From UHGV virus genome UHGV-0129235: a DNA stretch of 11,070 nt; one strand, given 5' to 3'. Shown piece by piece: positions 34 to 11,070 of the stretch. Position numbers and translations under genes: made by a program. The stretch's first letter is position 1, and each line of letters starts with the position of its first letter. Source of the stretch: a virus. The notes beneath the pieces were generated by a model. The model worked only from the letters and a program-made list of their open reading frames with translations, made no database searches and was not told the DNA's origin.

Positions 34-66
34 ATGGCTAAAGTTCTGGTGCTTTTACATAGCTAA
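34..66 (+). pseudogene. wrbA: Displaced native 5' end of wrbA (RBS + ATG + codons MAKVLVL) running into island DNA and stopping after 10 codons; left half of attB
   Basis: atg gct aaa gtt ctg gtg ctt (34-54) encodes MAKVLVL, which is the N-terminus of enterobacterial WrbA as I recall it; gaggag SD at 18-23; frame then reads LHS-stop in island sequence. The same codons resume at the right edge of the window. Confidence 0.55.
46..60. other. attL junction (host-island crossover region, shared core GTGCTTT at 49-55)
   Basis: ctggtgcttt|tacat: matches wrbA through GTGCTTT then diverges into island sequence; same 7-mer present at right junction 11016-11022. Confidence 0.5.
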
Positions 67-83
67 ACACGTACATTCAACTA

Positions 84-98
84 CCTGTTAATAACAGG
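84..98. repeat. Palindrome CCTGTTA-a-TAACAGG in attP-proximal left arm (candidate protein-binding site)
   Basis: 7-bp perfect inverted arms around a single central base, ~30 bp inside the attL crossover. Confidence 0.4.
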
Positions 99-435
99 AC
101 AATATCAGGTGAATCCCTATTCAATTTAAAGGCATTTCCCCAAGTATCTATGCAATCCTACACAGATTCTATGCAGTATCGGTATAGTCTCTTTTTAGTC
201 TAACTTATTGAAATATATAAAGAATCTGCGAAGTCTCTTTTCAGGGTAAACTGTATCGTGTTAGTCGTCCCTCTCTCGACTCCTAGAAAAGTGCTATATA
301 CAGGGCTATATAACGATATATAGATGTTTGGTCACCATACGTTACAGTTGCAAGAGATAACAATCAGCTATGTGAAAGTTAGGAAGTGATGGTTATAGTT
401 ACCCTCCTAAAATCTTCATAGCTCCTTCATAACCA

Positions 436-561
436 GTCTTAAAAGGACTTCCTTTTGAGACACTTTCAACGTAACGGTAGAATGCACCCTCAAGTAGTCT
501 CAAAAGGTTGTTTTTGGATTATGAGACAGCTAAACTTATGAGACTAACTTTTGAGACATCT
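436..561. promoter_or_regulatory. res-like recombinase binding-site cluster and probable autoregulated promoter upstream of the small serine recombinase
   Basis: 26-bp imperfect palindrome GTCTTAAAAGG-actt-CCTTTTGAGAC (436-461); third copy GTCTCAAAAGG (497-507); direct repeats TTATGAGAC (519-527, 536-544) and TTTTGAGACA (549-558); GTTTTTGGATTA (510-521) resembles the Hin/Gin-type half-site GGTTTTTGATAA; possible -35 ttgttt (508-513) / -10 taaact (530-535). Confidence 0.45.
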
Positions 562-572
562 AAGGGGGATGT

Positions 573-1121
573 ATGGCGGTGATTGGTTATTGCAGGGTAT
601 CAACACAAGACCAGACTGTAGACAACCAGAAACTACAGATAGAGAAGGTTCACAAGGTCGATAAATGGTTTATTGATGAGGCTGTCTCAGGAGCTACAAA
701 GGCCACCAGCAGAGATGGTTTTAGAGACATGATGAACTATGTAAGGTGTGACGATACGTTAGTTGTGGTAGCTATTGACCGTTTAGGGCGTAATACCGTT
801 GATGTGCTCTCTAACGTGGAGTCACTACAGACTAAAGGTGTGAGGGTTGTTTCTCTACGTGAAGGTTTTGACCTGTCTACACCAATCGGTAAAGCAATGC
901 TTACTATGATGGCTGGTTTAGCTGACCTTGAAAAAGACCTTATCAGTGAACGTAGAAAGGCTGGTATTGAACGTGCTAAAGCTGAAGGGGTTCACATGGG
1001 AAGACCTGTAAAAGCTTCTTCAGAGGCTGTACAGATGCTTATTTCACAAGGTAAAACGAGGTTGCAGATTCAGGAAGAGCTAGGAATCTCTAGAGCAACT
1101 TATTACAGACTTGCTAAATAA
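573..1121 (+). CDS. Small serine recombinase, resolvase/DNA-invertase family
   Basis: 182-aa ORF; N-terminal MAVIGYCRVSTQDQ catalytic-serine motif, DRLGR motif, C-terminal HTH (LGISRATYYRLAK); SD aaggggg 4 nt before ATG. Confidence 0.9.
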   Translation: MAVIGYCRVSTQDQTVDNQKLQIEKVHKVDKWFIDEAVSGATKATSRDGFRDMMNYVRCDDTLVVVAIDRLGRNTVDVLSNVESLQTKGVRVVSLREGFDLSTPIGKAMLTMMAGLADLEKDLISERRKAGIERAKAEGVHMGRPVKASSEAVQMLISQGKTRLQIQEELGISRATYYRLAK

Positions 1122-1805
1122 GTTACTGAATAGTTACATGGATGTGACTGATATTTGGCTTTTTTGCAAAGGGGGTCACATAGCTGGTGTGACGGGTACT
1201 TAGCAGCTACAGATTGATTGCAGATATTTTCGAAGATTATCGGGGAAGGGAAATGTAGAGGGGCTAGTCATTTTTTATAAAAAATTTAGAGGCTGGATAT
1301 TACCTGTATAGATTTTAACCAGTATAGAAGCCTGTATAACATGAGGGGTTCCTATGGTCACTATATCCCTCTTTCCCACTAAGGAAGCCTTAGCAGCACC
1401 TAGGCAACTATTGACTAAGGTCAACTTCATAAACTCAGAGTTAAGTTACCTTGAAAGATTCTACCAAGAAACTACACAGGTATTATTTAGTCTGACTGTG
1501 AAGAGATGTTTAACGGGAGGAAGAGAACCATGAAACCGAAGGTAGGTTCTATCTTAACAGTGACCGTAAGAAGAGAACTTGAGAGACAACTAAACAAACC
1601 TCTTAAGTAAAAGACAACACTCCAGAAAGAGTGTCTGTTTAACAGGCTTCTCAAAAGCTCTTAAGAAATCTGTTAAGTAGGGTCATGTGAACAATCTTAC
1701 CATTTTGTCAATGCTTTTGTCTTTGACCTAAATCAATAAAATGTATCGTTTGATGTGCTTTTAAACAAAATAGCTAAAGAATCTTTTTAGAGGGGCGCTT
1801 CGCTT

Positions 1806-2003
1806 GTGTCACATCCAATAATCAATGTCGGTCGTTATCATGGTGGTTCTGATGACTGGCGTACACCGTATCGTTTATTTCGTAACCTACACCGAGAATT
1901 TAGTTTCTCAATGGATGGTGCTGCAACTGAGCATGACGCATTGTTGCCACGGTTCACCGATGATATTCACAATCAATCATGGGTTGGTGAACGGGGTCTG
2001 TAA
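1806..2003 (+). pseudogene. N-terminal fragment of a phage Dam-type DNA N6-adenine methyltransferase (truncated remnant)
   Basis: 65-aa ORF with SDDWRTPYRLFRNLHREFSFSMDGAATEHDALLPRFTDDIHNQSWVGERG, matching the pattern D-x-W-x-TP...LF..L..EF.F..D.AA...NA....F...D.L.Q.W.G that I recall for phage Dam (Pfam Dam family); the expected downstream NPPYS catalytic region is absent in all frames. Confidence 0.4.
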
Positions 2004-2685
2004 AGATTGTTTAAGAAGTCGGTTTAGGGATTGGTAGATGATTCGGATGAAGCATCCTCATAACAATACCAATTAGAAGGTGGCTCTCCCTTTCTGGGGT
2101 TATCGCCTTGTATCTTAGTGAGTCCAGGAAGTTCTCTGTGAAGGGTCTTGTCAGTCCTTTATATTGGGTGATTACAACTTATTGAAAAATAAGAACTTTT
2201 AGAAGTTACTGTCAGATAGGTGAATACTTGATAGATACAGCTTTCTGGTTCTGTCAAGCTATTTTTTAATAGATAGCACAAAATGCTAAAGATACCCCTA
2301 TACCATCTCGTACAGGGGGTTTTGAAGGGAGTTTAACGGGGGTCTGTGTGGTTATCTGTTCTGGTCCTGTCCTTGAGGTCAAACGACCATTCACGACCAA
2401 ACAATCTGAACACGATAAACACTCTGACGATGAAATAGCGAAGTAATAAGCCTGCAATCAGCCCAACACCTCCACCAGCCCATACATCAGGTGACCCCAG
2501 CTCAGGAGGGAGATTTACCATTAAATTTCCTGTGTGCAATGCAATACCATGTGACATACATAGTTGATTCGGTTAGTTGGGCTTGTACCAACCCCTATCG
2601 AATAAACCTCATAGCCACGCCTTTATATTTTCCCTCTCTCATAAAACCATTATACCATAAATGTTAATAAAATGTTAAAAAATGC

Positions 2686-2714
2686 TTGACATTAGCCTTT
2701 GAAACTGCTAAGAT
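2686..2714 (+). promoter_or_regulatory. Sigma70-like promoter (TTGACA-17 bp-TAAGAT) for the four-gene operon
   Basis: Perfect -35 TTGACA at 2686-2691, 17-bp spacer, -10 TAAGAT at 2709-2714, followed by the motif ATTGTATATAT shared with the promoter at 4670. Confidence 0.5.
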
Positions 2715-2763
2715 TGTATATATAGTTAACAGGAAATTAACAATTACAAGGGCCAGCTTATGA

Positions 2764-3318
2764 ATGAACAACAAAGATTTTCAAAAATTTCTTGAAGAAT
2801 CCAAGAGACGCAACAGACACAACGGTTACAGCCACACAGACACCCCCACCAGCTACGAAGTCCCAACCTTTAGCAAATCCGAACGTAAGAACATTGAAGC
2901 GGTCATTCGTAGTATTACGCCACGAGACAGATTTATGCCAGCACGCAAAGAAAAAGAGAATACTTTAAAAACTTTCTTGATGGGCTTTGATTCTTACGAG
3001 CAATTACCGCCACGAATTGAAGATGTAATTATCGGTACTTGTCGCAGTTTTGGAAGGGATAACTATCACCGGAAAGTTTTCTATTTACTACGAAATCTTG
3101 ACAAAATTAGCTCAAGCACAGTAACAAATTATCTTCAGCGTCAAGCAACCAGGCTTAGCTATGAATTACCAAGCGATAAATATTGCGCTAACTTAGCCAC
3201 TATTTGCATGAAAGTTATTGAGACAATTAATCATCATGCGGAAGTGGGCAATATCAGCCTTACGATTAGTGAACCAGATTTCGAGTTTGACCCGTATTTA
3301 GTTACAGAGGAATTTTAA
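2764..3318 (+). CDS. Hypothetical protein (184 aa), first gene of four-gene operon
   Basis: Intact ORF directly downstream of promoter; abutted by next gene start (TAAATG); no family recognised. Confidence 0.6.
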   Translation: MNNKDFQKFLEESKRRNRHNGYSHTDTPTSYEVPTFSKSERKNIEAVIRSITPRDRFMPARKEKENTLKTFLMGFDSYEQLPPRIEDVIIGTCRSFGRDNYHRKVFYLLRNLDKISSSTVTNYLQRQATRLSYELPSDKYCANLATICMKVIETINHHAEVGNISLTISEPDFEFDPYLVTEEF

Positions 3319-3597
3319 ATGAATAAACACACATTAACCCGTATTTCAGAGGAAGCTTTTAACGGGCTTACCAGAATTAAACAAGCAACTAACTTACCTC
3401 ATCAAACTATTATGCAACTTGCAATTGCTAAAGAGGTCACTGAGTCGGATTTACTTAAATATCCAGTCTCTAAAGGTCGTAAGCACATCCGAATTAGTCA
3501 GGACGCTTTAGATACTTTGAAGGCACTTAACGGCTTTAAAATTGATATTGCCCGTCTATTGAGTCTTAAGATTCACAAGTTAGCGATGGAGGTTTAA
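3319..3597 (+). CDS. Hypothetical small protein (92 aa), possible DNA-binding regulator
   Basis: ORF with SD agagga 9 nt upstream; start abuts upstream stop; function not recognised (regulator assignment is a guess from size and a helix-like segment NLPHQTIMQLAIAKEV). Confidence 0.55.
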   Translation: MNKHTLTRISEEAFNGLTRIKQATNLPHQTIMQLAIAKEVTESDLLKYPVSKGRKHIRISQDALDTLKALNGFKIDIARLLSLKIHKLAMEV

Positions 3598-3812
3598 TGC
3601 TATGCGTTACCTTTGAATACCACACGGATAAAATGATTCGCCACATCTCCGACCTCCTGATTAAGGGAAACGGATTCGGTGACATCCATAACTCAAAAGA
3701 TATTTTCATTAAAGCCATTGGCCCAAATGAAGTACTGAAAACAGCAGTTAAACCGGAATGGTTTGAGCGTCACAAGATTGAATTAGGTTATTGGGGTGAG
3801 GAGGTTTTATGA
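3597..3812 (+). CDS. Hypothetical small protein (71 aa)
   Basis: SD ggagg 6 nt upstream; ATG overlaps upstream stop (TAATG), consistent with translational coupling. Confidence 0.55.
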   Translation: MLCVTFEYHTDKMIRHISDLLIKGNGFGDIHNSKDIFIKAIGPNEVLKTAVKPEWFERHKIELGYWGEEVL

Positions 3813-4096
3813 AACCTTGGCATGAAGATGTTAGACGATATTTTACAGAACACCTTATCTATGATGAATCCAGTGATTCCCTGTGCTGGTCTGATGGAGA
3901 GTCAGTCACGATAAATACCGACGACTACGGCAACAAAACATTTAATATAGGCCGATATACTTTCTACGTGAAATATGTTGTCTGGTTCCTTTATCATGGC
4001 TATCAATCCAACAAGCAAATTATCCATCGAAATGGTAACAGAGCCGATACCAGACCAAAAAATCTTATGCAAGTCCGAGACTTTAAGAGAAATTAG
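3809..4096 (+). CDS. HNH endonuclease-like small protein (95 aa)
   Basis: SD gaggagg 5 nt upstream; ATGA start/stop overlap; C-terminal YHGYQSNKQIIHRNGNRADTRPKNL resembles the HNH_3-type motif (hydrophobic-H-x-N-G-x-x-x-D-x-R-x-x-NL) of phage HNH nucleases. Confidence 0.5.
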   Translation: MKPWHEDVRRYFTEHLIYDESSDSLCWSDGESVTINTDDYGNKTFNIGRYTFYVKYVVWFLYHGYQSNKQIIHRNGNRADTRPKNLMQVRDFKRN

Positions 4097-4250
4097 AAAA
4101 ACAGCTTCTCAGACGCTCTCAATCGCATTCTAACGCAAAAAACTACCTTATTTTAGTGGGTAATACCACTGTACAGGCTACCCCTGAAAAAGACTGTTTA
4201 GCTCGTTACAGAGCGATTGAGGAGGTCTGGTAAAAAGGAGATTTTAAGAA

Positions 4251-4580
4251 ATGAGAGAATTAAACTTCCCACTACAGATTTTTATTGATACCGACACCGC
4301 CATGATGATTCAGGCTTTCGCTGATGTAGGTGTTAGCATTGACTTTGATAAGTTGTTAGAGTTAATGACTGATAATGCGGAAAGCATCTCTGACTTTATT
4401 CAGTCGGTGGAGTTTAACGAGCCTCGAATGATGCTACCAATTAAAGACAGCAACATGAAAAGATTGGTTATCGAGCAAACGAACAAATTCAGCGTTAGCC
4501 CTGAAAGATATCTCAAGGCAGCTATAGCAATTTTGTACGCTGACAATATTTTGGTGACGGATTCGAAGGTGGTGCATTAA
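4251..4580 (+). CDS. Hypothetical acidic protein (109 aa)
   Basis: ORF with SD aaggag 10 nt upstream; net acidic composition; no family recognised. Confidence 0.6.
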   Translation: MRELNFPLQIFIDTDTAMMIQAFADVGVSIDFDKLLELMTDNAESISDFIQSVEFNEPRMMLPIKDSNMKRLVIEQTNKFSVSPERYLKAAIAILYADNILVTDSKVVH

Positions 4581-4645
4581 TGGAATTGGTGATTATCTGT
4601 TTTGTATTGATTGGCATGATTGCAGGTGCATCTATTAAAGTATAA
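4580..4645 (+). CDS. Possible 21-aa hydrophobic single-TM peptide (MELVIICFVLIGMIAGASIKV), translationally coupled
   Basis: ATG overlaps stop of upstream gene (TAATG); almost entirely hydrophobic; too short for the ORF track; speculative. Confidence 0.25.
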   Translation: MELVIICFVLIGMIAGASIKV

Positions 4646-4669
4646 ATGTTACCAATCTGTTAAAAGCTG

Positions 4670-4698
4670 TTGACAAATAACCTTGAGCATGACATAAT
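4670..4698 (+). promoter_or_regulatory. Sigma70-like promoter (TTGACA-17 bp-CATAAT) sharing the ATTGTATATAT motif with promoter at 2686
   Basis: -35 TTGACA 4670-4675, 17-bp spacer, -10 CATAAT 4693-4698, immediately followed by TTGTATATAT. Confidence 0.5.
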
Positions 4699-4901
4699 TG
4701 TATATATGAGGATAGTCTTCTATCCGAAGTCTATAGGGAGAGCAATTCTCCTTGAATTAAAATATTAATCATCTCTACATCGATGATAACTATATTCTGA
4801 TTGGAAAGGTGCAATGCTTTTCGTCATGGCCTTTCAGTTCGGTCTGAGAGGTCATCTCGAAAAGTGCTTAATCATTCATTCATTGAACCCTTTACAGCTT
4901 T

Positions 4902-4930
4902 GCCCTAATCATGAGTTAGGGCTTTCTTTA
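4902..4930 (+). terminator. Terminator-like hairpin (GCCCTAA-7 nt loop-TTAGGGC + TTTCTTT)
   Basis: 7-bp perfect stem with U-rich tail; lies in the leader between promoter 4670 and gene 5145. Confidence 0.4.
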
Positions 4931-4998
4931 AGAGTTTTTAAACAGAGCTTTTAAAGAAAGTTTTTCCTGAAACTTCGTTAACGTTAAAGCAAACCTTC

Positions 4999-5034
4999 AA
5001 AGCCCTTCACAGATTATGTTTAGGGCTTTTTTCA
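4999..5034 (+). terminator. Terminator-like hairpin (AAGCCCT-15 nt loop-AGGGCTT + TTTTT)
   Basis: 7-8 bp stem followed by T-run; sequence-related to hairpin at 4902 (both contain TAGGGCTTT and a downstream AGCTTTTAAA). Confidence 0.45.
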
Positions 5035-5144
5035 GCTTTTAAAAAGCATACTTGGCAAACCACCTTTTAAGTCTCTTCTAAGTTTAGATAGGCTGTCAGG
5101 TGTGCTTTTTAAAAACTGAATATTACTTAGAAGAGGAAAATGAA

Positions 5145-5852
5145 ATGGAAAATCTATATATTAGCGGTAGAAAGGTTGATAGCTTCGGTGACTGGTCGCC
5201 ACAGACTGAACATCCAGCTATCACTATTCAGCGTAAAGAACACGATGAAAGAATTAAGCTTGAGCAATCGTTAAAGATGTCACCAAAGGTAATTTCCTTT
5301 GTGTCTCCTGAGCCTCAAGAAATGCCAGATATCTGCAAAAGTGAAGCACTATTTAATCTTGAGCGTGAATATTACCCACAGTTAAAAGCACAGCGTATTA
5401 AACTTGATGACGCTTACAGCAAAGTTACCCTGATGCAATCAGCTATTGAGCCGTCAGAATTTGAGATTCAGGATGAATTGTCACAGAAGCCGTATGTTTA
5501 CTTCACATACGAAGATAATGATGGTTTTGGTACTTTTCAAGAAAACGTCACAGACGTGATTAGTAGTCTTCCTGCTGGACATCGAATTGTGAAGATGGTT
5601 AAAGCTTCAAGAGGTGCTGGTCAGTTTATTTACATGACTAATAAGAGCGATGAAGAACTCTGTGAACTTGCCAGACAGAACATCTTGGCATCACGTAACA
5701 AGCAACTTGAAAATGTTAAGTTGTATCTCTCAAGAGAGCTTCAGGCTATGAAAGAGCTTGTGAAAGAATATGAAGATGCTAAGAAGATTGCTATGCAGGC
5801 TGATATTGAGCAGCTTACGAAGATTTCTCAGAAATATGCAAAGGCTATTTGA
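5145..5852 (+). CDS. Hypothetical protein (235 aa; C-terminal coiled-coil-like region)
   Basis: ORF; preferred start ATG 5145 (MENLYISG) with SD gaagagga upstream, rather than GTG 5100 of the ORF track; no family recognised. Confidence 0.6.
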   Translation: MENLYISGRKVDSFGDWSPQTEHPAITIQRKEHDERIKLEQSLKMSPKVISFVSPEPQEMPDICKSEALFNLEREYYPQLKAQRIKLDDAYSKVTLMQSAIEPSEFEIQDELSQKPYVYFTYEDNDGFGTFQENVTDVISSLPAGHRIVKMVKASRGAGQFIYMTNKSDEELCELARQNILASRNKQLENVKLYLSRELQAMKELVKEYEDAKKIAMQADIEQLTKISQKYAKAI

Positions 5853-5870
5853 TATGGTGTGAGGTGATGA

Positions 5871-6080
5871 ATGATTGAAGAACGTTTAGAGACTATTCGG
5901 TCTGTTTGTGAAAACTTAAAGTTACAAACTAAGCCAGCCTTAAGAATTAAAACCAAACATCAAATTATCACCTCACGCAAACCAAAAACACGCAAGATTC
6001 CAAAGTGGTGTATCGACCGTATCCCTTCCGATGCTCAAATTATAGGTGAAACGGAACTACATTATCTTGTCAGGCATTAA
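5871..6080 (+). CDS. Hypothetical small basic protein (69 aa)
   Basis: ORF with SD gaggtga just upstream; Lys/Arg-rich (RKPKTRKIPK); followed by terminator. Confidence 0.5.
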   Translation: MIEERLETIRSVCENLKLQTKPALRIKTKHQIITSRKPKTRKIPKWCIDRIPSDAQIIGETELHYLVRH

Positions 6081-6102
6081 AAAAGATTGGTTGGGTGAAT
6101 AC

Positions 6103-6142
6103 GGGGAGAGATTAACCTTAATTGGTTGGTCCTCCCCTTTTT
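6103..6142 (+). terminator. Rho-independent terminator candidate (GGGGAG...CTCCCC + TTTTT)
   Basis: GC-rich 6-bp stem with structured loop and 5-T tail, right after the 69-aa gene stop. Confidence 0.5.
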
Positions 6143-6177
6143 CGTATATGAACACTTAAAGAGGTGAAATATGAACA

Positions 6178-8355
6178 ATGGCACAGTTTAAAGTTGATAG
6201 TTTTATCGTTGAGCTAGGCTTCAGCGAGAACGTTATTAAGGGCTTGCAAAGAGTTGAAAAGGCAGCTTTGCAGTCAGCACAAAGAATTGAACGTAATTTG
6301 AATAGAGCGTTTAAGGTCGATACCAAGCAACTTGACAGCAATCTGACAAGTTCTTTAGGGCAACTTGAAAGGAAGTTTAATAAGACCTTTGACAAGATTG
6401 AACAGAGAGCAAGAAACACAAAAGTTTTCCGTTTCACAAGTCAGGTTAATGACGCTATTAATCCTCCAAAACAACCAAGACAGCCACGAATTAGCGGAAA
6501 CAGAGCAATCACAGCAGCTTATTCAGCGAATATGAGCAAGCTAAAAGGCTTTGACCCTATTTTGCAGAAATACATCAAATCTCAGTTTTACGGGCTATCT
6601 GCTAAAGCTGGGTCAATGGATAATTCAAAATTCAATGAGAAGCTGGCTCAGTTAAACACTTCAGTCAGAGAAGCAATTGCTAAAGCCAGAGGTCATACAT
6701 CCACCAGCATTAACAATACAAGCGACGCATTTAATAATCTTGCAAGCAATGCGATTAAATTATCTGGTGCATTTTACTCTGTGATGGGTGCTCTTAACGC
6801 TTACAAGGCCATTATGAATGCAGGTCTTAAACGAGATTCCGCACAGAGAGCCGCTAAGTTTGTACTTGGTGATAAAGCATCTGAGGCTGAAACATTTATC
6901 AGGGGACTGGCTGACAAGACAGGTCTTAATATCTCTGAAGGGCTATCAAGCTACGCTAAGTTTGCAGCAGGTGCTCAGGGTTCTATGTCACAGGAACAGA
7001 CACAGGAGCTATTTGGTAATGCAACGGCTATGAGTCGCTTAATGGGGCTTTCTAACGACGAGCTAAACGGCATTTTGAAAGCTTTTGAGCAGATGGCGAG
7101 CAAGGGCAAGATTCAGGCTGAAGAGCTTCGTGGTCAGTTAGGTGACCGTATGGCTGGTGCATTTAAACTATTCGCTGAAGCATTGGGTATGACTGCTACA
7201 GAGCTTGATAAAGCGATGAAAGACGGGAAGATTTTAAGTAGTGATACTCTCCCTAAAGTCGCTAAACAGATGGGCTTGATGATTGATAAAGCGGGTGGCT
7301 GGGCTGAAGTCGCTAAGAGCACTCAGACAGCTTTAGGGAAACTGGCTAACAACAGGGATGATACGATGGTGAAAATCTTCTCAGGTTCACAGGATGAGCT
7401 AAATGGCTTCTTATCCAGTCTGAGTAGCCTGCTTAGTGAAATGGGGATGAGTTCTTCTATCGCTGGTGATGCTATCGGTGGACTTATCGACATGCTTAAA
7501 GCTGGTGTAGATGATATTCGCGTATTCAATAACACCATGGAAGGCTGGATTTTACAGACTAAGAAGTTCTATTACAGCCTTGATGACACTAAACGAAAAC
7601 TACTTGATGAAGTCGGTGATGGTTTTATCAATTTTGTCAAAGGTCTTGCTATAGCGTTATCTGCAAAGACGCTATTCAGTGCTACTACAGGGGTTATGAA
7701 CCTGACAAGAGCAATCACAACGTTAGGTACAAGAGCTAATCAGGTGGCTGGTCAGGTAGCTACTGGTAAAGGTGGTGGAAAACTGAAAGGTGTAGCTGGT
7801 GGTGTAGGTAGTGCTCTTGCAATTGGTTATGCTGATGACGGTTATGAAACAGCGTTAGCATTAGCTTCAATGATTCCACAAATCAGAGGTGTCACTCTTG
7901 GTTTATATGCATTGAAGAAAGCACTGGATTTTATGAATCAGGAAGTAGTCAAAAACGCTAATATGCATCCATCTGGGGTAGGTGTGGGTAGTGACTTTAA
8001 TCCTGTGTATTCTGGTGACCCTAATAAACCGAATGTGATTAACGAAGGATGGAGTAGAATTTTTAGTTCAATGGGTGAATTGTTTAACAATGCCACAATG
8101 AATATTGCAAGATTCAATCATCCAGAATTGATTACCATGAAACAAGATGCATCATTAACGAGCACTGACATCCAAAATCTAAGAGATGAAATTAGTGCTT
8201 TGAGTAAACGTATTCAGGAGCCAGTGAAAGTTTCACTTGGTGGTGAAGTTGCCATTAAACCAGATGAAACCAGCTTTATGACCTTTAGCAGTAATATCTA
8301 CGACCAATATGCAGAAGCTACGTTATTAAGTTCATCATTCCCAGAAGATGATTGA
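6178..8355 (+). CDS. Tail tape measure protein-like (725 aa)
   Basis: Internal segment GLSNDELNGILKAFEQMASKGKIQAEELRGQLGDRMAGAFKLFAEALGMTATELDKAMKDGKILSSDTLPKVAKQMG matches the conserved tape-measure domain as I recall it; coiled-coil-rich N-terminal third; Gly-rich hydrophobic C-terminal segment; SD agaggtg 9 nt upstream. Confidence 0.75.
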   Translation: MAQFKVDSFIVELGFSENVIKGLQRVEKAALQSAQRIERNLNRAFKVDTKQLDSNLTSSLGQLERKFNKTFDKIEQRARNTKVFRFTSQVNDAINPPKQPRQPRISGNRAITAAYSANMSKLKGFDPILQKYIKSQFYGLSAKAGSMDNSKFNEKLAQLNTSVREAIAKARGHTSTSINNTSDAFNNLASNAIKLSGAFYSVMGALNAYKAIMNAGLKRDSAQRAAKFVLGDKASEAETFIRGLADKTGLNISEGLSSYAKFAAGAQGSMSQEQTQELFGNATAMSRLMGLSNDELNGILKAFEQMASKGKIQAEELRGQLGDRMAGAFKLFAEALGMTATELDKAMKDGKILSSDTLPKVAKQMGLMIDKAGGWAEVAKSTQTALGKLANNRDDTMVKIFSGSQDELNGFLSSLSSLLSEMGMSSSIAGDAIGGLIDMLKAGVDDIRVFNNTMEGWILQTKKFYYSLDDTKRKLLDEVGDGFINFVKGLAIALSAKTLFSATTGVMNLTRAITTLGTRANQVAGQVATGKGGGKLKGVAGGVGSALAIGYADDGYETALALASMIPQIRGVTLGLYALKKALDFMNQEVVKNANMHPSGVGVGSDFNPVYSGDPNKPNVINEGWSRIFSSMGELFNNATMNIARFNHPELITMKQDASLTSTDIQNLRDEISALSKRIQEPVKVSLGGEVAIKPDETSFMTFSSNIYDQYAEATLLSSSFPEDD

Positions 8356-8367
8356 TTTAACGGTGTT

Positions 8368-8493
8368 CTACGTGAATAAAGCAAAGTTAATACCCACACC
8401 AAAAATTATTTTTCACGTAGCTCACGCTTAACAGAGAAAATACTTATATATCAAAGGCTTGGTTAAAAATGATTAAAATACACTAAGCCTTTG
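8368..8493. repeat. Two perfect 9-bp inverted repeats with long spacers (CTACGTGAA/TTCACGTAG and CAAAGGCTT/AAGCCTTTG) in the intergenic region between the tape measure and the next gene
   Basis: 8368-8376 vs 8412-8420 and 8452-8460 vs 8485-8493; the second right arm ends 7 nt before the SD of the downstream gene. Confidence 0.4.
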
Positions 8494-8511
8494 AAATCAA
8501 AGGAGAATTTA

Positions 8512-9300
8512 ATGATTTACTCTAATCAGATTCGTTACAGTGGCAAAGATGGTATCTATTTCCACTTAAGAGATAATGTAGATGCCTTCTTAACCTTATC
8601 AGCTACTGAACAGATGGAGTTTGACAGCCCTATGCAGGTGACTACACAGAACATGCAATCAGGGCAAACCGTCACAGATAATGTGCAAAGAGCACCCAGA
8701 ACAATCACTATTAGTGGTGTCGTTGTAGTTGGTTATGAAGGAAGTTTATTACTAACTCGTCAGGGTCAATTAGTAGAAAACTTCATCGACACTCTGGAAA
8801 ACTGGCGTGACCAGAAGCAGATTATTTCGGTCATCTGTAAAGACGGTATCAAGATTGATGATTCCATTATTACGAGCTTTAAAGCCTCTAAAGATGTTAC
8901 TATCTCTAACGGTCTTCGTATCCAGCTAACTTTTCAGGAAATTAACTTTAAAGCTATTGTTGGTCAGACTGATATTTCTGCTGCGACTGGAAAGGCCGCT
9001 ACTACAAATGACGGTGGTGTGACCAGTAAGAAGAATGCAGGTAACGTGACCACTGAACGCAATAACGCGCCTATGCTATCGTGCAAAGAGCTAATGAGTA
9101 TTAACGATGTATCCGGTTACGCTCCAGCTATCAGAAATGATATTCTCGATGCTCAGATTAAATGCAATAAGGCTTGGAAGCTGGACTATTCAGACTTAAC
9201 AGAAGCTGAAAAAACCAACGTCACCAATGCTAACAGTAACGCTGGTCGGGTAGCTTCAAAGCTTAAAAAGTACTCAGTGAACCCTCACAAAAAATACTAA
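8512..9300 (+). CDS. Hypothetical protein (262 aa), possibly a minor/distal tail protein
   Basis: ORF with SD aaggag 6 nt before ATG 8512 (preferred over TTG 8491); position immediately after the tape measure and a weak pattern resemblance to small minor-tail proteins; function low confidence. Confidence 0.55.
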
Positions 9301-10940
9301 GCGTCCACCTCTTCCATATCACCAGCAGGATAAATCCTTGTTACTGGTTCACCAAAAATAAGCATATCATCTAATGACTGCATCTCATCGGTTGCTTCTT
9401 CAAGCGTTAAGGTGTGGTCATCTTTACCATCAAGAGGAAAACCACGAATCATATTTCCATTGTGAAGATATATATCCACCAGCTTTTCATTACCAGAAAC
9501 AACAATCTCTTTCACCAGACGCTTAATAATAATCTGGGCTTCAGTTCTCCCCTCTACAGACTCCATATCAAGACCGCTTAAATCCAAGCTTGATACAGAT
9601 TTTACCCTCGCCTTTTCTCGTGATAACTGAACTATCAGTTCATCTTTTTCTTCCTGTTTAACCCGTAGTGCTTCTTGAATCTGAGTGATGTTAGGAAGCT
9701 GTATCAGCGTCTCAGTGAGTTTTTCCAGTTCACTATCAACGGTGTTTAGTCTGCGTTGCAGTTCATCTAATTTAGCTGTATCGGTTGCTTCATCGTGTAG
9801 CTGTGACAGTTTGCTGAACAGACGACTACAAAGCTGTGTATCAAGTAACTTTCTGGACACTGTACCGTAACTACAACGGGATTCTTTATTACCATTGCAA
9901 CGGTAAGTACCTTGATAAACGGGTTTACGTATCCCTGTAGGAGTCATTACAAGCCCACACTTACAACGGATAAGCCCCTTCAGTATGTTCACATATAGCC
10001 AGTGTTCACCGCTGGATGTTTTCCCCTTCCCTGTTTCCTCTAACAGTTGCTGTACAGCGTAAAACTTAGAGTCTGTGACAATCTGAGGATAGAACCCTTC
10101 AATTTCTTCACGTAACACTGTTTTACGGTCTTCTGTAGAAATCTTAGCGGGAAGGTAACCTAATACACTTCGTGAAGTCAGGATGTGTTTAACGCTTAAT
10201 GCTGACCAGTTGCCATCCGGTTTCTTAGTCTTGGATATTCTGACCTTACGCTGATTAATGGTCGGGTAACCTTGTTCGTTTAGCCATTTACAGATAGCAA
10301 ACATCGACATACCAGAAAGACGCTTGTCATAGATGATATTCACCAGTGACGCTTTATCTTCATCAACGATGTAGTGTGAACCGTCTTCTGATAGCTCTAA
10401 CCATCCGGGGGCTTGCTTACCCATAGGCTTCTTAAGTTCTCTTGCAAGCTGTGTTTTATGGTTCCAGACCTGAGCTATACGCTTTTGCTTAACAAGAGAT
10501 TCTTGGTGTGCTCTCTCAGCTATGATGATGTGCTTAATCAACTTCACAGGGTCTGTTAATGCTGATTTGTCGTAGAGTTCACCATCTCCCAGAGTCAGTA
10601 TAGAGACTCCTTTCCTCAGTATCTGCCTGACATCATCTATAGCTGTGTCGATATCAGCCCTACTGAAGCGGTCAAAGTTCTCTACAACAATCAGGGAACC
10701 TTCTGGAATAGCCCCAGACATAACATTTTCAAACATACGTCTGAAGTCAGAACCTTGAGCCTTATGTTGCTGGTGAAAACCAGATTTACCCTTATCAACG
10801 TATCTGTGAGCAGGAAGAAGGTAATAATCGTTTTTGTGCTTAGAGTAGAAAGCATCAATGAGGTTTGTTTGCCGTCTTAAGGAGTCTCCTGAGTCTTGCT
10901 CTTTAGTACTCCACCTGATGTATGTCACTAGCAGCTTCAT
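9297..10940 (-). CDS. Large serine recombinase (integrase)
   Basis: 547-aa ORF; N-terminal resolvase-type catalytic domain ([14 protein letters not shown]), extended recombinase domain, Cys cluster CKCG...CNGNKESRC consistent with a zinc ribbon, coiled-coil segment; start lies 51 bp from the hybrid wrbA start at the island edge. Confidence 0.92.
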
Positions 10941-10991
10941 ATCTTCGGACTATGCTTATCTAAGTGGTTCATTGAACAGGAGAACAATGAT

Positions 10992-11070
10992 ATGAGTGTT
11001 AAGGCAAGAATACTAGTGCTTTATTATTCCATGTACGGACATATTGAAACGATGGCACGCGCAGTCGCTG
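10992..11070 (+). CDS. wrbA: WrbA NAD(P)H:quinone oxidoreductase, island-regenerated hybrid 5' end (partial, runs off window)
   Basis: [26 protein letters not shown]; from LVLYYS onward this equals the WrbA N-terminus as I recall it; SD aggag 10 nt upstream is supplied by the island. Confidence 0.85.
11013..11027. other. attR junction (island-host crossover region, shared core GTGCTTT at 11016-11022)
   Basis: ctagtgctttattat: island sequence up to the core, then wrbA codons YYSMYGH continue. Confidence 0.5.

Follow-up and report, generated by a model that had tools for sequence, protein, structure and literature searches.

The 11,070-nucleotide (nt) sequence of the UHGV virus genome UHGV-0129235, hereafter the window, carries at positions 2686-4096 four tightly packed small genes, g1 to g4, the last of which encodes an HNH-type protein. 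A first-pass annotation, made from the sequence alone, had described these genes as a promoter-driven module and had regarded them as the best candidate for an undescribed system in the window. Our analysis indicates that they are very probably not a stand-alone system but the promoter-proximal part of the early, rightward operon of a mobile island linked to Felix O1-like phages. On balance, sequence comparisons lead us to favour the view that the block is the early control operon of a satellite-type parasite of the Felix O1-like (Ounavirinae) virulent myoviruses, together with a mobile HNH cassette. More tentatively, we propose a widespread family of enterobacterial satellites of Felix O1-like phages, about 11 kb in length, in which the operon would act as a switch read through a DNA motif that copies an array of about 30 units in the helper. 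The specific roles that we assign below to g2 and g4 are put forward with somewhat less than even confidence. The choice of the block was reasonable; the unit of interest, however, is the whole island and its regulatory logic rather than the four genes.

The promoter, the four open reading frames (ORFs) and their junctions were found exactly where the first-pass annotation had placed them. The promoter, P1 (2686-2714, plus strand), consists of a TTGACA -35 element at 2686-2691 separated by 17 nt from a TAAGAT -10 element at 2709-2714, the latter extended by a TG dinucleotide. It is followed on the same strand by g1 (184 amino acids (aa), 2764-3318), g2 (92 aa, 3319-3597), g3 (71 aa, 3597-3812) and g4 (95 aa, 3809-4096). 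The genes are joined by TAAATG at 3316-3321, TAATG at 3595-3599 and ATGA at 3809-3812. Good Shine-Dalgarno sequences, previously noted for the whole set, precede g2 (AGAGGA), g3 (GGAGG) and g4 (GAGGAGG), while that of g1 (AAGGG) is weaker.

Since the window is AT-rich, a match to the promoter consensus proves nothing alone: 23 promoter-like sites were found versus 26.6 expected from shuffled sequences, i.e. not above chance. We consider P1 to be real because it is conserved across diverged islands. The flanking genes of seven islands share 61-98% protein identity, yet in all of these islands the P1 -35 element is invariant and the -10 region nearly so. (Loci are given L numbers; those of the phages Felix O1, garuso and NBEco005 are L008, L019 and L020.) A fifth gene, g5 (109 aa, 4251-4580, plus strand), is conserved in all islands examined. 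The stretch from g4 to g5 lacks terminator-like sites; on the plus strand they begin with an intrinsic-terminator-like hairpin at 4902-4922, which is kept in seven of eight aligned islands and deleted in L003. The transcription unit therefore most likely runs through g5, probably its last gene, to this hairpin, and the P1 operon probably comprises five genes, not four. Ratios of nonsynonymous to synonymous substitution rates of 0.2-0.35 for g1, g2, g3 and g5 (0.08-0.24 in a separate comparison of g3 homologues) indicate purifying selection.

Comparison of islands revealed that g1-g4 do not behave as one unit. The core genes g1 and g2 are present in every island compared (g1 is frameshifted in L015, 3453-4007), and it is the slot after g2 that varies. 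In this window and in L002-L004, L010, L011, L016 and L021 the slot holds g3 followed by the gene for the 95-aa HNH protein. In L005 and L014 it holds a gene for a 90-aa HNH protein, 40% identical to g4, followed by a g3 homologue. In L007 a g3 homologue stands alone and HNH is absent. In L006, L015 and L023 a 128-aa protein with a C-terminal helix-turn-helix (HTH) replaces the 95-aa HNH protein, with or without g3 and with or without the 90-aa HNH protein. The g3 product, a small, slightly acidic protein, is present in most islands, its homologues being 73-100% identical, including the one in HNH-less L007. Among 5426 complete E. coli genomes the g1-g4 block was found in 344 (about 6%), chromosomal in every case. 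The 95-aa HNH gene is present in 226 of these 344 genomes, always at no less than 95% identity and in 168 of them at 99% or more; in about a third of islands it is absent, relocated or replaced. Only six clusters of g4 were found in a database of 5.8 billion proteins.

A self-contained four-gene module of fixed stoichiometry is thus not supported, as g1 and g2 are constant and the HNH gene is moved, missing or replaced. The first-pass annotation had itself named conservation of the genomic neighbourhood across related islands as the comparison that could refute it, and in that comparison the four-gene unit is not kept. What stands of its reading is a co-regulated module on a mobile island, with a conserved promoter and packed, co-oriented small genes, but the module is not a four-gene unit. 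A terminase partnership of the HNH protein in cos-type packaging, suggested at the same time, was rejected: the island has no terminase, the protein is of the I-HmuI/AP2-associated HNH_3 class, the wrong HNH subfamily for such a role, and direct terminal repeats have been reported for Felix O1-like phages (PMC11737134).

The same comparison bears on the proposal that g1-g4 are a self-contained anti-phage or anti-defence system carried by the island as cargo, which we now consider highly improbable. Tight coupling, a dedicated promoter, a nuclease domain and three proteins without a family all agree with such cargo, and satellites often carry defence genes (PMC12987554). However, conservation does not extend to the four genes as a unit, no locus examined has g1 and g2 without the tail-gene backbone, and variable cargo is found at the left end of the island instead (a small recombinase, a Dam methylase, HNH-AP2 genes and genes for hypothetical proteins). 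In addition, the operator sequence at P1 recurs at the promoter of the tail operon (see below), and no match below E 0.01 to PADLOC-DB was obtained for nine island proteins.

The whole window is one integrative element of about 10.96 kb with E. coli chromosome at both ends. The element spans approximately 56-11015, with a GTGCTTT core on either side (49-55 and 11016-11022). It is inserted into the first codons of wrbA, at the 5' end of the gene, and supplies wrbA with a replacement start and N-terminus (13 residues in place of MAKVLVLYYS), so wrbA probably stays functional. A 547-aa large serine recombinase (9297-10940, minus strand), recognized by Pfam, is the mover of the element. No tRNA genes were found in the window. 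The genes are ordered as a small serine recombinase, a Dam remnant, a divergent control region, g1-g5, a 564-nt non-coding stretch, g6, g7, a tape measure gene, a gene for a Dit-like protein and, on the minus strand, the large serine recombinase. The G+C content of the island is 40%, compared to about 51% for E. coli; that of Felix O1 is 39% (PMC3185647).

At least three chromosomal sites harbour the island backbone, namely wrbA, the interior of yecE and a position upstream of tonB, and a genome can hold up to three copies. The recombinases encoded at these sites are only 27-35% identical to one another, and the compact 11-kb architecture is kept at all of them. Bacteria with homologues of g1 and g2 are limited to E. 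coli, Shigella, Salmonella, Citrobacter, E. albertii and E. fergusonii. One locus, L010, is an 11,141-bp metagenome contig with a 126-bp terminal overlap that closes on itself. At its junction a 13-nt core joins the right end of the island to the left end, free of chromosomal DNA, as in an attP-type site; the junction is 100% identical in a second, independent read set. We conclude that the island exists as an excised circle or concatemer. Three more contigs of about 11 kb, checked as possible circles, turned out to be integrated copies. Literature searches with phage names, satellite terms, integration sites and protein accessions uncovered no paper about this island, nor one about a satellite of Felix O1-like phages.

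The link to Felix O1 is provided, first, by the tail genes. The tape measure gene (6178-8355) lies after g7 and matches Pfam TMP_3 and PHROG 4036; it is followed by a gene for a Dit-like 'baseplate' or hub protein (8491-9300; PHROG 3721, E 3e-129). The two genes are adjacent and in the same order in Felix O1. The Dit-like protein is 72% identical to the product of Felix O1 ORF165, the only phage relatives of its gene are Ounavirinae, and a 510-nt segment of the gene (8536-9045) is 92% identical at the nucleotide level to more than 200 Felix O1-like phages. The best phage relatives of the tape measure are likewise all Ounavirinae, at 30-35% identity, and between islands its identity ranges from 42 to 94%. 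The high nucleotide identity of the Dit-like gene, together with the divergence of the tape measure, points to recent exchange with phages and rapid diversification of the tape measure. No Felix O1 homologues of g1, g2, g3, g5, g6 or g7 were detected.

These properties leave little room for a decaying prophage fragment or for a conjugatively mobilised island whose tail genes would be inert leftovers and whose g2 would serve as a TraY-like accessory protein of a relaxosome at an oriT-like inverted repeat. F-plasmid TraY is indeed the closest fold match to g2, an inverted repeat adjoins, and some copies are decaying (g1 is frameshifted in L015, and insertion sequence (IS) elements are present in L006). 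Against this, no relaxase or other transfer gene was found in Pfam and NCBIfam scans, most copies have intact backbone genes that evolve under purifying selection, the 11-kb architecture is kept at three att sites despite very different recombinases, the Dit-like gene was exchanged with phages recently, as its 92% nucleotide identity indicates, and an attP junction exists. We give this explanation hardly any credence. The decay itself was observed as the above-mentioned g1 frameshift and, in L006 (12417-18608), as interruption of the tape measure, Dit-like and recombinase genes by IS100, IS1 and IS2.

The second link to Felix O1 is provided by a DNA motif. P1 is bracketed by an inverted repeat whose 21-nt arms are 76% complementary and 47 nt apart. 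The upstream arm (2658-2678, plus strand) contains two TGTTAA hexamers at 11-bp spacing (2662-2678), is conserved in all islands and overlaps the -35 element of a divergent promoter. The downstream arm (2726-2746, minus strand) contains two TGTTAA hexamers at about +5 to +25 of the P1 transcript. The operator hexamers around P1 are unchanged between islands. A search of the window for the TGTTAA-pair pattern gave three matches versus 0.16 expected. Candidate operator sites are 2662-2678, 2726-2742 and 4647-4663.

The third candidate site belongs to a second promoter, P2 (4647-4698, plus strand), which heads the tail-gene block. P2 consists of TGTTAC-N5-TGTTAAAA, a gap of 4-5 nt, TTGACA and CATAAT elements separated by 17 nt, with a TG-extended -10, and then TGTATATAT. 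It is paralogous to P1, having the same upstream hexamer pair by its -35 element, and its architecture is kept in all eight aligned islands, including the most diverged one. The presence of two near-consensus promoters with matching phased sites by the -35 element suggests a single DNA-binding regulator, most simply a repressor.

In the island loci, exact TGTTAA-N5-TGTTAA occurs only at P1, and it does so in every one; it is absent from the chromosomal flanks of these loci and from an Aeromonas phage locus. In the first 45 kb of Felix O1, eight exact copies were found versus 0.02 expected, a number reached in none of 100 shuffled sequences. Seven of the eight fall in a 550-bp stretch of a 1.6-kb ORF-less region (L008 12305-13928) located between convergent gene blocks. 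This region contains 30 TGTTAR units, of the form (C/T)TGTTA(A/G), and nine of the spacings between them measure exactly 11 bp. Across 256 Ounavirinae records the region is conserved, and several of these records have an end within it; the motif array recurs in garuso and NBEco005. The ORF-less array region has no annotated function and receives no discussion in the Felix O1 genome paper.

We next considered which island protein could read the motif. As the first-pass annotation had noted, the first three proteins of the block match no recognised family: Pfam, PHROGs, NCBIfam and PADLOC are blank for g1, g2 and g3, as well as for g5, g6 and g7. Only weak matches were obtained, of g1 to ARMET_N, Ribosomal_S13_N and an unnamed PHROG, and of g2, below threshold, to DndE. 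A sequence search against solved structures returned nothing for g1 or g2 and only spurious single-chain antibody fragment (scFv) matches for g4. The g2 protein is small and basic (15 lysines and arginines versus 9 aspartates and glutamates). Its predicted fold comprises two beta-alpha-alpha units in one chain, with the paired beta-strands forming a DNA-reading ribbon. The best fold match is F-plasmid TraY; TraY and DndE align over 81-87 of the 92 residues. Thus, g2 is predicted to be a single-chain tandem ribbon-helix-helix (RHH) DNA-binding protein of the TraY/DndE kind. Neither the whole protein nor either half matches a Pfam RHH family, and the NCBIfam DndE model scores 17.1 bits versus a cut-off of 71.85. 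The beta-ribbon residues are invariant between islands, and the rest of the protein diverges to 53% identity. No match to g2 was found in phages by tblastn, and the DNA of the four-gene block gave none in phages by blastn in distant mode. A possible second tandem RHH protein, g5, was rejected as a g2 paralogue, since hhalign gave a probability of 2.7%, i.e. no detectable homology.

The helical g1 protein is fast-evolving, with 61-98% identity between islands, yet it is under purifying selection. A search for related loci with g1 alone yielded only two loci from viral collections and one genome fragment. Its only phage homologue is encoded by Aeromonas phage 85AhydR10PP, where all neighbours are hypothetical proteins.

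Operators of RHH proteins such as Arc, MetJ, omega and CopG are usually phased short repeats. We take g2 as the candidate operator-binding protein because short repeats lined up on one helix face are what RHH proteins typically read, and because its ribbon residues and the hexamers are both invariant while the rest drifts. We propose that g2 would bind the phased hexamers and autorepress P1 and P2. Infection by a Felix O1-like phage might be sensed, or the phage manipulated, through the common DNA motif. This could occur in several ways: replicating phage arrays, with dozens of sites per genome, may titrate the repressor; a phage protein that reads the phage's own array may act on the island sites; or g2 may act on phage DNA. 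The late P2 operon would then supply a satellite-specific tape measure and hub protein, resulting in chimeric tails as in the PLE satellites of vibrios. In this scheme, g1 would be an essential early factor and g3-g4 an optional accessory cassette.

The repeats could also be viewed as iterons of a replication module, with g1 as the initiator acting on TGTTAA iterons, the P1 region as the origin and g2 as a TraY-like DNA-bending or architectural protein; the Felix O1 array would then be a phage origin that the island mimics to capture the replisome. The placement of phased repeats beside the first gene, in ORF-less DNA that separates divergent units, resembles the situation at the PLE origin (PMC9410903), the Felix O1 array is iteron-like, and no other initiator is recognisable in the island. 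The hexamer pair, however, stands at a fixed distance from the -35 element of two promoters, which argues for transcription control. Moreover, the island has only two plus two (plus two, if P2 is counted) units, and g1 has no significant fold match to any initiator. A replication module is therefore unlikely in our estimate, and we retain the regulatory reading of the repeats.

The variable part of the operon was examined through its HNH gene. The g4 protein matches Pfam HNH_3 (PF13392) over residues 53-89 with 34.3 bits (E 1.8e-8), above the curated cut-off of 24.8, in agreement with the HNH_3-like motif reported earlier; it also matches PHROG 99/959/59, annotated as HNH endonuclease. The prototype of the HNH_3 family is I-HmuI. 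The protein aligns with the N-terminal and HNH parts of Felix O1 HNH-AP2 proteins at 24-30% identity (30% for ORF218), its motif being IHRNGNRADTRPKNL versus DHIDGNRSNNHISNL in ORF218, where the full catalytic pattern Asp-His ... Asn-Asn ... Asn-Leu is seen. The general-base His72 and the metal-binding terminal Asn85 are kept. By sequence, g4 is a minimal HNH_3 (HNH/N) domain of the I-HmuI/AP2-associated class.

When this window is compared with six diverged islands, nucleotide identity is highest at g4, where it reaches 98.3-100% with 0-3 synonymous differences. It is 96-100% in g3 and in the g4-g5 spacer, 91-97% in g2, 74-92% in g5 and 67-98% in g1, and the outer genes have up to 33 synonymous differences per gene. 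The peak with almost no synonymous change indicates a recently exchanged tract centred on the nuclease gene. In phages, nuclease genes are found at boundaries of genetic exchange (PMC10055350). The HNH gene is polymorphic in presence and in position and lies in a tract of elevated identity, as homing-type genes do, and the pattern would fit either a homing-type selfish gene or a recently swept accessory gene. The g4 product, a stripped-down HNH/N domain, may accordingly be one or the other, a selfish homing-type gene or a recently swept effector. Genomes with several islands, up to three, offer an opportunity for exchange, and g4 might move between co-resident islands by recombination.

Several observations weigh against the satellite reading and against the role suggested for g4. 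Two of the four canonical HNH_3 motif residues are missing from g4 (the Asp is replaced by Ile71 and the central Asn-Asn by Asp79-Thr80), and the 90-aa sister allele has Phe in place of the catalytic His. The g4 protein ends 10 residues after the motif, while its Felix O1 relatives run some 70 residues further into the AP2 region. It has no second Pfam domain and hence no visible DNA-binding domain. With a degenerate motif and no DNA-binding domain, g4 cannot be asserted to be an active nuclease; its nuclease activity and, with it, genuine homing are in doubt, and a selective sweep could equally underlie the identity peak. As regards the island, no replication initiator, terminase, capsid-remodelling gene or pac/cos element was recognised in it. 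A blastn comparison of its non-coding DNA with Felix O1, which could have revealed promoter, pac or ori mimicry, gave nothing beyond the tail genes. The circular L010 contig may represent a tandem of head-to-tail copies instead of an excised circle. Finally, induction, replication and packaging by the phage are all presumed from sequence.

The same features of g4 bear on the possibility that g3 and g4 are an anti-helper pair, in which g4 would be an HNH/N nickase similar to NixI of PLE directed against Felix O1-type genomes, g3, translationally coupled to it from the upstream side, would be its specificity or inhibitor (immunity) partner and the identity peak would result from a phage-driven sweep. 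Membership of g4 in the HNH_3 family with His72 and Asn85 kept, the association of g3 with HNH genes in either gene order, the ATGA junction and the sweep-like peak are all consistent with this. The substitutions of Asp by Ile and of Asn-Asn by Asp-Thr, the lack of a DNA-binding domain, the Phe in place of the catalytic His in the alternative allele, the lack of g4 in one third of islands, the occurrence of g3 alone in L007 and the lack of a PADLOC match speak against it. We consider such a pair rather unlikely; it is compatible with the rest of the satellite model.

The closest known parallel to the proposed satellite is PLE. Vibrio PLE parasitise the virulent myovirus ICP1 as satellites. They have a large serine recombinase, divergent operons separated by ORF-less DNA, mostly hypothetical proteins, the HNH/N nickase NixI, and a tape measure and tail operon of their own that give rise to chimeric tails; PLE-like elements have been reported only in vibrios (PMC9410903, PMC12987554, PMC13595925). 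The island is similarly compact, has a large serine recombinase at one end, encodes mostly hypothetical proteins and has an ORF-less control region with divergent promoters (2649-2714). Its own tape measure, which is diverged, and its tail-assembly genes have counterparts in a virulent myovirus, for which PLE provide a precedent (PMC12987554), and it carries an HNH/N-class nuclease gene, this broad class being all that it has in common with NixI. In contrast to PLE, which are 17-18 kb in length (about 17 kb in PMC9410903), the island is 11 kb. Its hosts are enterobacterial and its presumed helpers are Ounavirinae, whereas the PLE helper is ICP1. Domain and family scans found no homologue of RepA_N, TcaP, CapR or LidI among the island proteins.

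Individual parts of the island have other relatives. The g4 protein resembles the free-standing HNH_3/HNH-AP2 genes of the I-HmuI class (Felix O1 ORF218 and ORF305) in its HNH_3 match, 24-30% identity, polymorphism and identity peak, but differs in being only 95 aa long, in lacking AP2, NUMOD or HTH domains and in having Ile before the catalytic His and Asp-Thr for Asn-Asn. The g2 protein resembles TraY, DndE and the archaeal virus protein AvtR in its predicted tandem beta-alpha-alpha fold, small size, basic character and the phased short repeats nearby; it differs in belonging to no sequence family and in a context that is neither a relaxosome nor DNA phosphorothioation. The control region is reminiscent of Stl of Staphylococcus aureus pathogenicity islands (SaPI), P4 and lambdoid switches, since near-consensus promoters are flanked by repeated operators, a divergent promoter pair is present, and an operator is also present at the late-gene promoter, with terminators after it. 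In contrast to these systems, the candidate repressor of the island is encoded inside its own operon, the divergent arm is a 62-aa membrane-type ORF, and the operator motif is common to a repeat array of the presumed helper. To our knowledge, an operator motif common to a helper array has not been described for other satellites.

The remaining features of the island are as follows. The divergent promoter (2678..2649, minus strand) consists of TTAACA and TATAAT elements separated by 18 nt, with a TG, is conserved and overlaps the upstream operator arm. It precedes a nearly invariant leader of about 80 nt (2560-2640) and a 62-aa ORF (2333-2521, minus strand) with one strongly hydrophobic segment, VGLIAGLLLRYFIVRVFIV. 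This ORF is 72-98% identical between islands, with an in-frame 4-codon indel; judging from its sequence, the product is a small membrane-type protein, possibly toxin-, holin- or LidI-like. The 564-nt non-coding stretch at 4581-5144 contains P2 (core elements at 4670-4698), a structured conserved leader and the hairpins GGGAGAGCAATTCTCC and CTGAGAGGTCATCTC. Two terminator-like hairpins, the one at 4902-4922 that ends the P1 unit and one further downstream, lie in the P2 leader before g6. The leader may represent either a small RNA or an antitermination-controlled leader of the tail operon. Rfam detected in the window only a sub-threshold 'bantam' hairpin (4800-4876).

Downstream of the leader lie g6 (about 236 aa, 5145-5852) and g7 (69 aa, between g6 and the tape measure gene). 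The RefSeq name 'transposase' that g6 bears in several genomes receives no support from Pfam, NCBIfam, PHROG or PADLOC models. Two deeply diverged alleles of g6, 26-27% identical, occur among islands. By its position with g7 ahead of the tape measure, g6 could be an analogue of a tail assembly chaperone.

The left end of the island carries a 182-aa small serine recombinase of the resolvase/invertase type with an HTH_7 domain (573-1121) and the remnant of a truncated Dam-like methyltransferase gene (1806-2003), which is intact, at 669 bp, in L003, L005 and L024. Other islands have HNH-AP2 genes, full-length in several of them, or genes for hypothetical proteins here instead, which makes the left end a variable cargo zone. 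A perfect palindrome, CCTGTTAATAACAGG, is located at 83-97, about 30 nt inside the left island end, and is kept in L010 and L014. It contains an operator-type TGTTAA/TTAACA unit and may be part of attP or a site for another regulator. At the yciI/tonB site (L013, 34-1425) the island adjoins tail-fibre assembly, Gp53-like and Pin-type invertase genes that belong to a different prophage-like element, and the yciI/tonB locus thus appears to be a shared integration hotspot.

Taken one by one, the parts belong to kinds already known, namely an HNH_3 domain, an RHH fold, a sigma-70 promoter, a serine-recombinase island and tape measures encoded by satellites. Two things appear to be new, the island family as a candidate satellite of virulent Felix O1-like phages in enterobacteria and the operator motif common to two island promoters and the presumed-helper array. 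The g4 gene provides a clean natural example of a nuclease gene that marks a recent exchange tract between diverged mobile elements. The common operator motif amounts to a concrete proposal for a sensing mechanism. Essentially one system of satellites that exploit strictly virulent phages is known to us, PLE and ICP1 in Vibrio cholerae. If our interpretation is correct, the island would be the first case of a PLE-like lifestyle outside vibrios and would offer a tractable second model of such satellites in the best-studied hosts, E. coli and Salmonella. Felix O1-like phages are used in Salmonella typing and biocontrol. With about 6% of complete E. coli genomes island-positive, the presence of such satellites would also bear on phage therapy and diagnostics.

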